Virus record (IMG/VR): IMGVR_UViG_3300029118_000005
Source: a virus
DNA: 64,000 bases
Direction: 5' to 3' (one strand)
A program made the translations under genes and the position numbers. This document shows positions 57,858 to 61,156 of this stretch, in pieces (the stretch's first letter is position 1; each line of letters starts with the position of its first letter). The notes below the pieces were generated by a model. It was given only the letters and a program-made list of their open reading frames with translations. It was not told where the DNA came from and searched no databases.

Positions 57858-58091
57858 TTACAACATCTGCAATTCCTCTCCGGTGTCCTTTGATGTGAGT
57901 TTGATAGAAACGTCATATCCTAATGCTTCGGATATCTGGCGTATATCACTTTCTCTAAAATTATTTAATCTAAGCTTTTTGGACACGTTAGATTGAGAGC
58001 ACCCTAACAGTTTTGCAAGCTGAACTCCGTCCATCTCTTTCTTAAACATTATTGTTTTTACAATGTTCGAAAATGTGTTTTTGCTTTCCAT
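57858..58091 (-). CDS. XRE-type HTH protein (Aca-like position)
   Basis: 77 aa with HTH GVQLAKLLGCSQSNVSKKL. Its start abuts the stop of the Cse1-like gene. Confidence 0.7.
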   Translation of the reverse strand: MESKNTFSNIVKTIMFKKEMDGVQLAKLLGCSQSNVSKKLRLNNFRESDIRQISEALGYDVSIKLTSKDTGEELQML

Positions 58092-59651
58092 TTACTCACC
58101 TTCCTCCTTCGGTTTAAGATCTGCCTTGTAAGAGCTTAAATGTTCTTCTATAGTTTCAAGACTATTGGATTCCTCTGGAATCAATCGGTTGAGATAATAT
58201 AAAAAAGAATTATAAGCCTTTGCTGTGCAATAATACTTTTCCTTGCCATTCACCGTAACTATTCGACCTCTAAATGATGTCGGGGATGCATTATCAATTA
58301 AAGATTTAGAAAAGTCCAGTGCAGACTGCTTGACCATTCTTAGAAAATATTCAAATGCGGTGGCGCTTGATGAAAGAAATCTGGACCAAATCAAATCTAG
58401 GTTACTAGAAAACTCATATTTTTTAAGTTCAGTCGGATTCTGCTTGCCACTAGCCATCTGAATATTGTAGGATAATACACCAATTTCATTTGTAATATAA
58501 CGGCATAGTTCAATGGCAACAGATATGTAATCTGCAAAGTTAGGATCGAGATTCGCTGTAAATCTTTTTGAACATTCATCGACAAACTTCATTGCCTTAG
58601 AGTCATACATCATTCCACAAGTTTGAAAGCCTGCGTTGCTAATTCCGATTAAGCGCAACCATGTAACAGTGTCTTGATTGCTGTAAAGTATCTTGTCGAG
58701 TAGTTGCCACAATGGAACATCGTTAAATAAGCGAAGTGGTTTAGCACTGTTACTATTTAAAATGTAAAGTGCCATGGTTTCAGCTACAACACGTTCTTTA
58801 TCAAAAAACTCCCCACCCAATGCATTAAATCCGGTTATGACCCCATTTTCACGCTTGAGAAATATCCTGCGCGATTGGTGCGTGAATAATTCCGCTGGGT
58901 TAGAAGGTGGATCAATCTTTTTGCGCTCATCGGATCGTGGCGAGCATTCCCATATTGGGCAAGGCTTAGGCCACAATTCTCCATTACCATTCTGTAAAGG
59001 AACTAGGTTCATCATAAGTGTTTCAAAAAGATTTCGCCCGATTGCGTAAACAATAGTATTTTGCCCCAACCATCCAATACTGATTGAAGGCAAGCCTGTC
59101 CTACTTGGCTTTACAGAAACATCGTCATACCCGTTGATAAAAAGAAGCCATCTAGCCGCTTCTGCATATGTTAGTTGCATTTTTGCTTCTCCACTTCTTG
59201 CTGCAAAAATTCGTACCTTGTTGTTGCTTTCAGAAATTTCTCCGTTTAACTTTGCAGCACCAAAAGCAGTTCCTTTTTTAGCTTCGTTTGCCTGATAGAA
59301 TGGAGCATCAGGATGAAAAAGCCAGAAACGTTCTCTGTATTCTTCTAAATATTTTAAAAACGTTTCTGGAAAATGACCGAGACTCCAATAACTTTTCCAA
59401 CGGCTGATTGCTTCATCCCTGTTTGAAAGTGGAATTTCATCACCGTTTGAGTCGAATCTTGCGAATCCAGAATGAGCAATTGCAAGAAGTAGCCGTATCA
59501 TTGCGACATTTTGAGTATCTGTTTCACCTGCCAAATCCATGTATTCATGACTGCGGGCGAAAACTTCTTTAAGTGAAACTTCTTTAATAGTATAATTTGG
59601 AAGCAATACACGCACCCAGTTTTCATCAAGCAAATTAAATTCTTTCTTCAT
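58092..59651 (-). CDS. orphan Cse1/CasA (Cas8e)-like protein
   Basis: 519 aa. N-terminus FNLLDENWVRVLLPNYTIKEVSLKEVFARSHEYMDL...VAMIRLLLAIAH parallels the Cse1 N-termini I recall (FNLIDEPWIPVL..., MNLLIDNWIPV...). The length fits Cse1. Confidence 0.65.
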   Translation of the reverse strand: MKKEFNLLDENWVRVLLPNYTIKEVSLKEVFARSHEYMDLAGETDTQNVAMIRLLLAIAHSGFARFDSNGDEIPLSNRDEAISRWKSYWSLGHFPETFLKYLEEYRERFWLFHPDAPFYQANEAKKGTAFGAAKLNGEISESNNKVRIFAARSGEAKMQLTYAEAARWLLFINGYDDVSVKPSRTGLPSISIGWLGQNTIVYAIGRNLFETLMMNLVPLQNGNGELWPKPCPIWECSPRSDERKKIDPPSNPAELFTHQSRRIFLKRENGVITGFNALGGEFFDKERVVAETMALYILNSNSAKPLRLFNDVPLWQLLDKILYSNQDTVTWLRLIGISNAGFQTCGMMYDSKAMKFVDECSKRFTANLDPNFADYISVAIELCRYITNEIGVLSYNIQMASGKQNPTELKKYEFSSNLDLIWSRFLSSSATAFEYFLRMVKQSALDFSKSLIDNASPTSFRGRIVTVNGKEKYYCTAKAYNSFLYYLNRLIPEESNSLETIEEHLSSYKADLKPKEEGE

Positions 59652-59662
59652 ATATATCCTTC

Positions 59663-59692
59663 TTTCTACAGTTCTTTACATTAAAATAATGT
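59663..59692. repeat. 10-bp phased iteron array C (3 units)
   Basis: tttctacagt tctttacatt aaaataatgt, containing the palindrome ACATTAaaaTAATGT. Lies directly upstream of the Cse1-like gene. Confidence 0.7.
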
Positions 59693-59701
59693 CAAATAAG
59701 G

Positions 59702-61156
59702 TTAAATACTGTTATTTACTAATATATATATTTCTTGCAATGCGTAATCTATATTTATACGGCTCAAATATCCGATTTTTGCATTCCAATCTTGAGCCTG
59801 TGCAATCATGGCATAATACAGTTTGTGGCTCAGGTGAGCAGTTACGAAGAACACAAAGTCAGATTTTTTTAATGCAGCGTTGCGCACAGTGCTGACATTT
59901 CCTGCACTGATATATTGCCAATCCGGAAGATAAGTTTTAAGCTTCTTTATCAAGTTTGGATACCCTCCAACAATTGTACCACTAATGTTTTTTAATTGCT
60001 GAATTTGCTCTTTAGATAGCTTATTTGCAATTTCGGTTTCCGAATCAGATTCCAGTGAAAACATATGCTCTCGTAAAGCATAAAGCTCCCTACGTTCACC
60101 CTCTACCTTTTGCAGTTCGGATTTTAGTGCATCATTCTTCTGCTTGAGTAGATTTATCTCATCAGATAAGCGCTGAACCTGCTCAGTACAAGCTTTTTGT
60201 TCAGACATCCTGCGTTCCTGAGATTCAGATAATGCAGATTTGGCTTGAAGCAATTCATTTTTAATGCTCTCTACTTCAATATACACGTCTTCACGATTGT
60301 GTTGGAAGTAGTATTCTTTAGACTGCTTATATGCCTTACACATAGCTAATATATAGCTCGTATATTTTGCATAAGTCAGGAAATCCTCACGTATTCCTCC
60401 TCTTTTTCCGTGCGTATAAGCAATTGCTAGTGCTTCCAGATCTTCATGTGTGAACTGTAATTCAGAAAAAATAGAAACGCTTGAAAGTGACTCAATGTCA
60501 AACACGGTAGTGTATCCAAATTCCTCATCTTTTGGTGCTAACTGGATCTGCTTAAATAAATCTTTTGGAAGTTGACTAATGTATGATTTTGCTCTTTCCT
60601 GAAAAGCACAGTCATATTTCTTTAAGCCTTTTTGTATTCTGCGTTCTGGATTGTATCCGTAGTTTGCAATAAAGCAAAGTAATTCATCACATTTTTTACG
60701 TTCTTGCACTAACTCTTGCGGCCACATATTTAAAAAGTAATAGCCTGCAAATAAATGGCCATTAAAATTATCGTCCGAAACATGATCTGACTTTGCAAGC
60801 TTTGCATAAATGACTTCTCCGATTACACTATCAAAATGAAGCGGTTCGTCTTTTGGAAGCCTTTTAAAAATGTTGTATAGCTTTCTGTATCCCTTTTTGA
60901 AAAGAATATCCAAAGAAGTCTGTGCTTGTTCATCTTCTGTGTAGCTATATTCGACGATTCCGAGTGCTTTTTTATAAGCTTCTTCTGTTTGCAAAGACAG
61001 CTCTTCCGAAAATAAAGTATTGTAATATTCGCTCTGCTTTGCAGCATTATAATAAGCTACAGCATTCTTGCCATATTCGCTTTCTAAATCTAATCGTATA
61101 TGGCGTGCAAACGCGATAGCGCAAGCGTAAAACGGTATCAAGTTTACTTGCTCCAT
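59702..61156 (-). CDS. coiled-coil protein with C-terminal DUF2325-like domain
   Basis: 484 aa. The C-terminus reads TIVGGYPNLIKKLKTYLP...SDFVFFVTAHLSHKLYYAM...AKIGYL. There is a central heptad-rich region. Confidence 0.5.
   Translation of the reverse strand: MEQVNLIPFYACAIAFARHIRLDLESEYGKNAVAYYNAAKQSEYYNTLFSEELSLQTEEAYKKALGIVEYSYTEDEQAQTSLDILFKKGYRKLYNIFKRLPKDEPLHFDSVIGEVIYAKLAKSDHVSDDNFNGHLFAGYYFLNMWPQELVQERKKCDELLCFIANYGYNPERRIQKGLKKYDCAFQERAKSYISQLPKDLFKQIQLAPKDEEFGYTTVFDIESLSSVSIFSELQFTHEDLEALAIAYTHGKRGGIREDFLTYAKYTSYILAMCKAYKQSKEYYFQHNREDVYIEVESIKNELLQAKSALSESQERRMSEQKACTEQVQRLSDEINLLKQKNDALKSELQKVEGERRELYALREHMFSLESDSETEIANKLSKEQIQQLKNISGTIVGGYPNLIKKLKTYLPDWQYISAGNVSTVRNAALKKSDFVFFVTAHLSHKLYYAMIAQAQDWNAKIGYLSRINIDYALQEIYILVNNSI

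Follow-up and report, generated by a model that had tools for sequence, protein, structure and literature searches.

Proteins that inhibit CRISPR immunity and are themselves derived from cas genes are already established. Among these anti-CRISPRs (Acrs), AcrIB3, a homologue of Cas5, and AcrIB4, a homologue of the C-terminal part of Cas8b, are encoded by Listeria phages, assemble into the type I-B Cascade and prevent it from binding DNA (Katz et al., bioRxiv 10.1101/2023.06.24.545427, cited as Nature 2024 in PMC13131331; PMC13131331). The same authors surveyed IMG/VR and tabulated 358 orphan viral cas genes (Table S3 of the preprint). Here we describe a cse1-like (cas8e-like) gene at 58092..59651 on the minus strand of a 64,000-nucleotide stretch of IMG/VR virus record IMGVR_UViG_3300029118_000005. 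This whole stretch is called the window, and positions are those of the window unless a contig or relative is named. Given the precedent of AcrIB3 and AcrIB4, we read the product of the gene, referred to hereafter as viral Cse1, as a virus-adapted 'defective subunit' anti-CRISPR of an Anthropogastromicrobium phage-plasmid, a reading to which we give a probability of roughly 0.6.

Viral Cse1 resembles AcrIB3 and AcrIB4 in being a lone homologue of a Cascade subunit on a mobile element, in forming a clade of its own apart from the genuine Cas proteins, in its level of identity to the host subunit (about 38-42%) and in its presumed action as a defective subunit. It differs from them in system and in size: they act on type I-B and are either a copy of Cas5 or a 90-residue C-terminal fragment, whereas viral Cse1 belongs to type I-E and is full length (519 residues). 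Judged from its sequence and a structural model, viral Cse1 is the opposite of AcrIB4, as it appears to retain the N-terminal docking domain and to have remodelled the C-terminal half. Mimicry of the large subunit against type I systems is also known from AcrIF3, a mimic of the Cas8f helical bundle that blocks the recruitment of Cas2/3. AcrIF3, however, is small, has no detectable sequence homology to Cas8f and binds the nuclease, whereas viral Cse1 is an evident full-length homologue and is more likely to enter Cascade. Compared with the genuine Cse1 of Clostridia (Anthropogastromicrobium aceti H6_35, loci L135/L005), viral Cse1 matches the same profiles and fold, has 50-58% identity in its N-terminal part and carries a nearly identical L1-like loop. 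Unlike these proteins, it is encoded without a cas operon or array, and its C-terminal identity to them is 21%, compared to at least 30% between cellular pairs.

The viral cas8e family had already been catalogued by Katz et al. One cas8e contig in their Table S3, IMGVR_UViG_3300045988_121492 (host KLE1615), is one of the relatives of the window (locus L069), and the tabulated hit (15143..14697) falls inside the cse1-like gene of that contig (13599-15155), a copy that is frameshifted. The entry therefore belongs to the same gene family, given in the catalogue as a partial hit without analysis. Beyond this entry, we show that the gene is full length, under selection, matched to a host and asymmetrically diverged. 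No Cas8e-derived inhibitor is among the validated Cas-homologue Acrs of a 2026 review (PMC13131331); Katz et al. was consulted as the preprint. If its function is confirmed, viral Cse1 would be the first large-subunit mimic shown against type I-E, which is among the commonest and best-understood CRISPR types, and the first full-length decoy of the Cas8 family. The split between docking and effector halves would then reveal which surfaces of Cse1 can be changed to switch Cascade off. The system looks tractable: A. aceti H6_35, a cultured type strain of the likely host genus, carries a complete I-E locus, and members of the phage-plasmid family abound in metagenomes of the human gut.

Identity and fold of viral Cse1

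The gene and the regions of its product are as follows.

58092..59651, minus strand: full-length orphan Cse1/Cas8e homologue, 519 residues (Pfam, NCBIfam, PADLOC, AlphaFold2, Foldseek, alignments)
About residues 134-149: L1-like loop in the conserved N-terminal globular part
Residues 296-369: remodelled middle region
Residues 370-512: shortened C-terminal helical bundle

The gene is a full-length member of the Cse1/Cas8e family. Its product, which begins MKKEFNLLDENWVRV, matched the Pfam model CRISPR_Cse1 (PF09481) at E=7.7e-70 with 236.7 bits (cutoff 24.7), and in this alignment residues 6-442 corresponded to model positions 1-427 of 450. The TIGR02547 model (casA_cse1) was matched with 125.5 bits (cutoff 70.05) over residues 6-277 only, and the Cas8e models of PADLOC were matched with a best value of 5e-68. 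An AlphaFold2 model, for which the alignment input was 70 homologues, was confident (predicted local distance difference test, pLDDT, 87.8; predicted template modelling score, pTM, 0.89) and showed two domains, an N-terminal globular domain and a C-terminal helical bundle. All significant Foldseek matches to this model in the PDB (23/23) were Cse1 chains, free or within Cascade, with template modelling scores of 0.70-0.76 by query and up to 0.81 by target. No Cse1-like fold was found for viral Cse1 in the BFVD viral structure library. Between viral and cellular clades the L1-like segment KLNGEISESNNK hardly varies; it was aligned to the L1 of E. coli by profile alignment and is flexible in the model (pLDDT<50 at 141-144).

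A first-pass annotation, made from the letters of the window, had named the gene Cse1/Cas8e from the resemblance of its N-terminus to those of type I-E large subunits and had proposed a search against the two curated profiles and a comparison of a predicted structure with those of Cascade. The identification was correct: both profiles were matched above their curated cutoffs, and only Cse1 chains were significant in the structural search.

Orphan status across the genome

When the Cas proteins of the closest cellular I-E locus were compared with the window by tblastn, only Cse1 itself gave a real match (3e-123), and no genuine match to Cas3, Cse2, Cas7, Cas5, Cas6e, Cas1 or Cas2 was found in the 64 kb. 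A candidate for Cse2 at 33888-34319 (E=0.002) was rejected as a chance match inside an ELLD/SH3 endolysin. No CRISPR array was detected in the window with TRF (Tandem Repeats Finder), a repeat finder or Rfam. The whole element is ~87 kb, of which 64 kb are in the window. The missing 20.1 kb was rebuilt from contig IMGVR_UViG_3300045988_088002 (L160 + L305), which is 93-98% identical, and neither a Cas homologue (best E=0.27) nor an array nor an I-E repeat was found in this segment. The idea that the remaining I-E genes or an array lie just outside the window, a finding that the first-pass annotation had set as a refutation of its proposal, was thus rejected on 20.1 kb from a near-identical genome. 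Its statement that no other I-E component is present holds by all of these searches, but it had overlooked a second cas-derived gene at 51332..52261, which is described below.

The element therefore lacks what makes up a functional I-E locus, namely cas3, cse2, cas7, cas5, cas6e, cas1 and cas2 together with an array. Since it offers neither a source of CRISPR RNA (crRNA) nor a partner subunit, the alternative suggestion that the gene is a domesticated surveillance module used by the element itself is without support.

GenBank entry MT835722.1 (L153, 36% identity) was considered as a second instance in a phage and was rejected, as it holds a complete cas3-to-cas2 locus with an array and its gene is not an orphan. 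The entry is labelled 'UNVERIFIED: Bacteriophage sp.' and comes from human faeces; it is GC-rich, carries a cas2-DnaQ fusion and is probably a bacterial contig rather than a phage.

Distribution, phylogeny and selection

The cse1-like gene is carried at 92-97% identity by at least 64 IMG/VR contigs, which are 45-92 kb long with one of 120 kb, and a single cluster of viral Cse1 at 90% protein identity (P0001) has 1306 member sequences. Homologues fell into two tiers. The upper tier consists of seven clusters (47-96% identity), all of which are orphans in phage or plasmid-like contexts without cas neighbours, often after parA; the viral clade as a whole extends over three lineages and 47-97% identity. 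The lower tier (38-44% identity) consists of genuine Cse1 proteins encoded in complete cas3-cse1-cse2-cas7-cas5-cas6e-cas1-cas2 loci that belong to gut Clostridia. The viral tier was monophyletic in 50/50 bootstraps, and viral Cse1 is thus, in the manner of AcrIB3 and AcrIB4, a Cas homologue on mobile elements that lies outside cas loci and in its own clade. A search of a plasmid collection returned only genuine casA genes (25-34% identity), and PHROGs contains no family for viral Cse1 nor for the Cas8c-like gene described below.

The viral cse1-like gene is maintained under purifying selection. An intact 519-residue open reading frame (ORF) was present in 57/67 relatives, and the ratio of nonsynonymous to synonymous substitution rates (dN/dS) among 52 unique alleles was 0.25 for the whole protein, with values of 0.14 in residues 1-295 and 0.23 in residues 296-519. 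The intact frames and the low ratios indicate that the gene is maintained and is not debris. Frameshifted or 5'-truncated copies were seen in 4/67 relatives (L020, L069, L070 and L071), as might be expected if a recently captured cas gene were a non-functional passenger drifting to loss. We disfavour this explanation and regard it as very improbable, given dN/dS values of 0.14-0.25 over the 52 unique alleles, an ORF that stays intact across lineages down to 47% identity and the 1306 members of cluster P0001.

Divergence of the C-terminal half

Viral and cellular Cse1 proteins were 53% identical over residues 1-295 but only 21% identical beyond residue 295, whereas pairs of cellular proteins with equal N-terminal identity were 39% identical beyond that residue (minimum 30%). 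Likewise, among columns with a conservation of at least 90% in the cellular proteins, the viral clade kept 100/130 in the N-terminal part but 13/44 in the C-terminal part, where 31/44 conserved positions were replaced. In the hairpin aligned with the wedge of E. coli, the tip reads YGDKDFF in cellular proteins and YDSKAMK in viral ones. Five deletions mark the viral clade (after residues 302, 327, 338, 369 and 428), the middle region is ~20 residues shorter and the bundle ~12 residues shorter. The conserved residues of the wedge hairpin, base loops and bundle have thus for the most part not been retained as they are in a functional I-E subunit. The bundle also has about a third fewer lysines and arginines in the members closest to the window (12-15, compared to a cellular mean of 22), with 18 and 20 basic residues in the two most distant viral members. 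Net charge of the bundle was examined as a sign of lost DNA binding and rejected, as it did not differ between the clades; the smaller number of basic residues is weak evidence.

In published work, L1 of Cse1 docks in a pore of Cas5 and touches the crRNA 5' handle, and the bundle contacts Cse2 and guides the displaced strand (PMC5965380). Cas3 binds where the bundle meets the base, a region to which E. coli loops 288-294 and 318-323 belong, and is indicated to recognise Cascade in a DNA-bound conformation (PMC5965380). The first two viral deletions fall on these two loops in an hhalign register with a probability of only 63%. A residue-level mapping of the lysine finger and the glycine loop was rejected, as the alignment to E. 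coli CasA is too uncertain for it (63%). The pattern in viral Cse1 appears to be one of a docking half that was kept and an effector half that was rewritten.

This pattern could also be produced by an active replacement subunit that joins the host Cascade and reprogrammes it. Such a subunit might alter licensing by the protospacer-adjacent motif (PAM), so that AA-flanked phage protospacers are no longer accepted, or it might yield a Cas3-independent Cascade that binds DNA for gene silencing or for excluding competing elements. Reprogramming would explain why the C-terminal bundle is well folded and selected: the full-length two-domain fold was modelled with a pLDDT of 87.8, purifying selection extends to the C-terminal half (dN/dS 0.23), viral Cse1 still has the L1 loop, the glycine-loop region and the wedge-hairpin scaffold including K352, and the remodelling is clade-wide and stable, not erratic. 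We nevertheless consider it unlikely, as the element has no crRNA, array or other effector subunit, 31/44 conserved C-terminal positions are replaced and five deletions are present, and the known viral homologues of Cascade subunits are inhibitory.

It is quite unlikely that viral Cse1 acts outside Cascade as a free protein that sequesters Cas3, the Cse2 dimer or PAM-bearing DNA. Cse1 is the Cas3-docking subunit and also contacts Cse2 (PMC5965380), and the evidence from context (spacers and an anti-defence islet, below) fits titration as it fits a defective subunit. However, conservation with the host protein is highest where Cse1 docks on Cas5 and the 5' handle (L1 and the N-terminal domain), while the bundle and base that contact Cse2 and Cas3 are the most diverged, and Cas3 is indicated to recognise a conformation that Cascade adopts on DNA (PMC5965380).

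Host and spacer evidence

The nearest cellular Cse1 by distance is that of A. aceti H6_35. This strain defines the GTDB genus KLE1615 (PMC9723785), which is the predicted host genus of the phage family (Katz et al., Table S3, bioRxiv 10.1101/2023.06.24.545427). The first-pass annotation had called for a search for I-E loci in candidate hosts, and A. aceti H6_35 was found to have a complete one. The metagenomic locus L005 is nearly identical to it: the Cas proteins are 98-99.7% identical and the trailer-end spacers are common to both. Two spacers in the L005 array match the phage family, one of them in the window, and a third matching spacer is in an Acetatifactor I-E array. Scanning metagenomes for the A. 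aceti-type repeat yielded another 153 unique spacers. Four of these match the phage family (two perfectly), and one of the four falls in the window. The two sites in the window are:

3792..3824, minus strand: protospacer, 30/33 match to an A. aceti-type I-E spacer of L005, AA immediately 5'
4401..4433, minus strand: protospacer, 32/33 match to a spacer of three metagenomic arrays that have the A. aceti-type I-E repeat, AA immediately 5'

All seven matching spacers are from arrays that flank closely related I-E loci or carry the A. aceti-type repeat. Reversed-sequence controls for spacer matching gave 0 matches, and AA was found immediately 5' of 7/7 protospacers, compared to an expectation of 0.105 per site. 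The locus, the spacers and the host genus together describe a host that has the cognate system and targets the element; the spacer matches and the AA PAM indicate that the I-E system attacks the phage family that copies its large subunit. Both protospacers in the window are within a 1-kb stretch of small minus-strand ORFs.

A second cas-derived gene in a variable islet

The window encodes a fragment of a second Cascade large subunit together with a usual companion.

51332..52261, plus strand: 309 residues, homologous to just the N-terminal domain of Cas8c/Csd1 (type I-C large subunit)
52367..53275, plus strand: HNH-endonuclease-like gene, usual companion of the Cas8c-like gene (PHROG HNH families, co-occurrence)

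The Cas8c-like protein matched Pfam Cas_Csd1 (1.4e-18, model 1-213 of 559) and PADLOC Cas8c (7.9e-29, model 2-199 of 537), and its only significant Foldseek matches were Cas8c chains of I-C Cascade. Its family comprises 54 clusters from gut phages, all but one of 177-333 residues (the exception has 464), and no full-length Cas8c is among the 54.

The slot that follows a DUF4417 gene (53547-54209) is variable in content. An AcrVA2-like gene (PF26125) occupies it in 37 relatives, and the Cas8c-like gene, usually accompanied by the HNH gene, does so in 21 relatives and the window; both genes are present in one relative and neither in three. For this comparison the slot was taken as 51332-54209 in the window and about 15.4-20.2 kb in relatives L001 and L008-L071. 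From its gene content the slot appears to behave as an anti-defence islet, and this supports the anti-CRISPR reading of the cse1-like gene. By analogy, the Cas8c-like fragment probably does the same job against type I-C. The alternation of a Cas8c fragment and an AcrVA2-like gene at a single site suggests that inhibitors derived from Cas proteins and matched to the subtype are routine cargo of gut Lachnospiraceae phages; this would bear on CRISPR-based host prediction and on phage engineering in gut Clostridia.

A 46%-identical mini-Cas8c was also seen in a different phage family of ~50-60 kb (7001-7831 in L157-L159). There it again adjoins a DUF4417 gene, just before the terminase genes, and a Tad4 (PF25186) gene is ~5-6 kb upstream.

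Proposed function of viral Cse1

We propose a single capture of cse1 from gut Clostridia, after which the gene was kept by a tailed phage-plasmid (~87 kb) of Anthropogastromicrobium (GTDB KLE1615). The N-terminal domain and the L1 loop would dock on Cas5e and the crRNA 5' handle and displace the Cse1 of the host. The remodelled C-terminal half, with its changed wedge-hairpin tip, shortened base loops and shorter bundle poorer in lysine and arginine, would then fail at a later step, either the opening of the duplex and locking of the R-loop or the presentation of the Cas3 docking surface. Interference against a resident or infecting element would be blocked as a result. Expression would come from the plasmid-maintenance arm as a two-gene unit, in which a small helix-turn-helix (HTH) protein may tune the level. 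A decoy against host type I-E immunity had been proposed in the first-pass annotation; orphan status, a separate clade, selection, a matched host, spacers and asymmetric divergence all favour it circumstantially, and from these we infer the inhibition itself.

Several points weigh against this proposal. Every step of the mechanism is deduced from sequence and its comparison. Genuine Cas5 or Cas8b gave no inhibition when overexpressed (Katz et al., bioRxiv 10.1101/2023.06.24.545427), and Acr activity can thus not be predicted from homology alone. The mapping of the wedge and the Cas3-contact loops is of low confidence, as the profile alignment to E. coli CasA has a probability of 63%. The C-terminal half is still a folded helical bundle under purifying selection, which argues for a specific role and against a merely 'broken' half. 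No validated acr gene adjoins the cse1-like gene, and the variable islet is 4-6 kb away. Assignment of the host to KLE1615 is indirect, by spacers, the IMG/VR prediction and the nearest homologue, and the phage-plasmid was not found in 185,579 species-representative genomes. Finally, the disrupted copies in L020, L069, L070 and L071 may be assembly errors or genuine loss.

The HTH gene and the promoter-like region

The following features surround cse1 and the gene downstream of it.

57858..58091, minus strand: 77-residue HTH protein, candidate regulator (PHROG repressor matches, junction in 61 relatives)
59652..59701, minus strand: promoter-like leader of the cse1-HTH pair, including the ribosome-binding site AGAAGGA before the ATG
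59684-59695, minus strand: TTGACATTATTT in the cse1 leader
59678-59692, minus strand: palindrome ACATTAAAATAATGT in the cse1 leader
59668-59679, minus strand: conserved box GTAAAGAACTGT in the cse1 leader
57742..57779, minus strand: intrinsic-terminator-like hairpin and U-run closing the bicistronic unit
57794..57852, no strand assigned: phased 10-bp repeats (TTTACA/TTAACA/TTGACA + TTAT) that separate the HTH stop from the terminator
53308-53383, 57794-57852, 59668-59714, 61720-61782, 63585-63650, 63758-63790: repeat/box sites of the maintenance arm

By their arrangement cse1 and the HTH gene appear to be a compact two-gene unit. The stop of cse1 abuts the ATG of the 77-residue ORF (GAG TAA ATG), the TAAATG junction is kept in 61 relatives, and the ribosome-binding site of the HTH gene (GGAGG) is inside the end of cse1. 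The terminator hairpin has a stability of -19 kcal/mol (z=-5.1), with 0/200 shuffles as stable. The first-pass annotation had described this abutment correctly; its assignment of the HTH protein to the XRE type is weakly supported, as HTH_26 and HTH_3 were matched at E=0.02-0.07. The best matches were to a ParB-HTH model (5.6e-4) and to PHROG transcriptional-repressor families (E=2e-6 to 4e-5).

The same annotation had likened the pair to acr-aca operons, in which an anti-CRISPR-associated (Aca) regulator follows the inhibitor. Like those operons, the pair has an HTH gene translationally coupled downstream of a candidate inhibitor and is bracketed by a promoter-like leader and a terminator. 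Unlike them, it has an HTH protein of no recognisable Aca family, which was not seen beside other candidate acr genes. The 20 HTH homologues detected were all at least 72% identical and the contexts examined were those of this phage family, in a search that needs shared 5-residue words and that remote relatives could escape; with only same-family homologues found, membership in a broad Aca family was not supported. The HTH gene is also absent from L003 and L004, which represent the 64% and 47% Cse1 lineages and are two of the three viral lineages examined, and no conserved inverted-repeat operator was found. The palindrome noted in the first-pass annotation is present in the leader, but it is upstream of cse1 in 16/67 relatives only. 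Another copy lies at 53366-53380, and with one mismatch the sequence is seen two more times, upstream of parA. The palindrome was therefore rejected as a specific Aca operator. What the relatives conserve is a direct box, GTAAAGAACTG, that is common to neighbouring promoters. The acr-aca reading is thus weak; the HTH protein may regulate the pair, but without the defining features of an Aca.

The promoter-like module of the cse1 leader is also found upstream of a gene for a 166-residue protein (61707-61785). Use of viral Cse1 as a DNA- or protein-binding factor in plasmid maintenance or regulation, with no effect on immunity, would accord with a module common to cse1 and the neighbouring maintenance genes, with the location of cse1 in the maintenance arm, where the gene is downstream of ParA in each of the window, L001 and L003, and with the strong remodelling of the C-terminal half. 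We find such an exaptation rather improbable, however. The L1 loop is nearly unchanged, and its sole known role is contact with Cas5, crRNA and PAM; the nearest homologue is the predicted host's own Cse1, and host arrays target the phage; and this genome family also has AcrVA2-like genes and a fragment of a second large subunit.

Phased 10-bp repeats of the form TT(G/T/A)ACATTAT and the box GTAAAGAACTGT recur between genes of the maintenance arm. These modules do not fit a standard -10 element and may be sites for an element-encoded regulator or sigma-like factor. An ORF at 63830-64000 (minus strand) that runs off the right end of the window finishes ...SKGKSISEIATRLSVSTRTVDRRIADIKSKINQL; by eye it is possibly an HTH of the LuxR/sigma-70 region-4 type and a regulator of the promoter-like modules.

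Phage-plasmid context

The first-pass annotation had called the element a phage-plasmid, and from its gene content this is a fair description. Genes for the large terminase, portal, major head protein, tape measure and tail proteins are present in the window along with those for a Rep3 initiator with iterons, a ParA ATPase and a small ribbon-helix-helix (RHH)-like protein. The two main plasmid features are:

30128..31477, plus strand: plasmid-type replicon, 22-nt perfect iterons (30128-30210) then a Rep3-family initiator (30302-31477)
62797..63564, minus strand: ParA partition ATPase, head of the maintenance arm that holds the cse1-like gene

Upstream of the Rep3 initiator (region 30024-31477) there are 12-nt repeats (30037-30081) followed by four perfect copies of the 22-nt iteron, and the replicon is placed between the portal/head genes and the large terminase gene. 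ParA is followed by genes for a 108-residue protein and an RHH-like protein of 122 residues, and it is also upstream of cse1 in relatives L001 and L003. A gene for a 484-residue coiled-coil protein (59702-61156, minus strand; phrog_11092, with a weakly DUF2325-like C-terminus) is directly upstream of cse1 in the window and accompanies it in L001 and L155. In L004 this gene is two genes removed, and it is absent from L003.

A tyrosine recombinase (11833-12873, minus strand) lies between tail genes and matches a PHROG integrase family at 7e-55. It may act as an integrase, as a dimer resolvase or as a tail-fibre invertase, and its presence makes integration possible beside episomal replication.

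Two RNA elements were found in the window. A type II hammerhead ribozyme at 49906-49972 on the plus strand (Rfam RF02276, 52.4 bits, gathering score 37) is flanked by small ORFs at 49604-49906 and 49985-50347. An int-alpA RNA (RF02996, 50 bits) is followed directly by four tRNA genes (40140-41476, minus strand), in a region that adjoins an HNH gene (40390-41202) and a gene for an HTH_36 protein (39100-40110). The tape-measure gene (ORF 15271-20835, 1854 residues) contains five tandem 63-nt (21-codon) repeats at 15821-16135.

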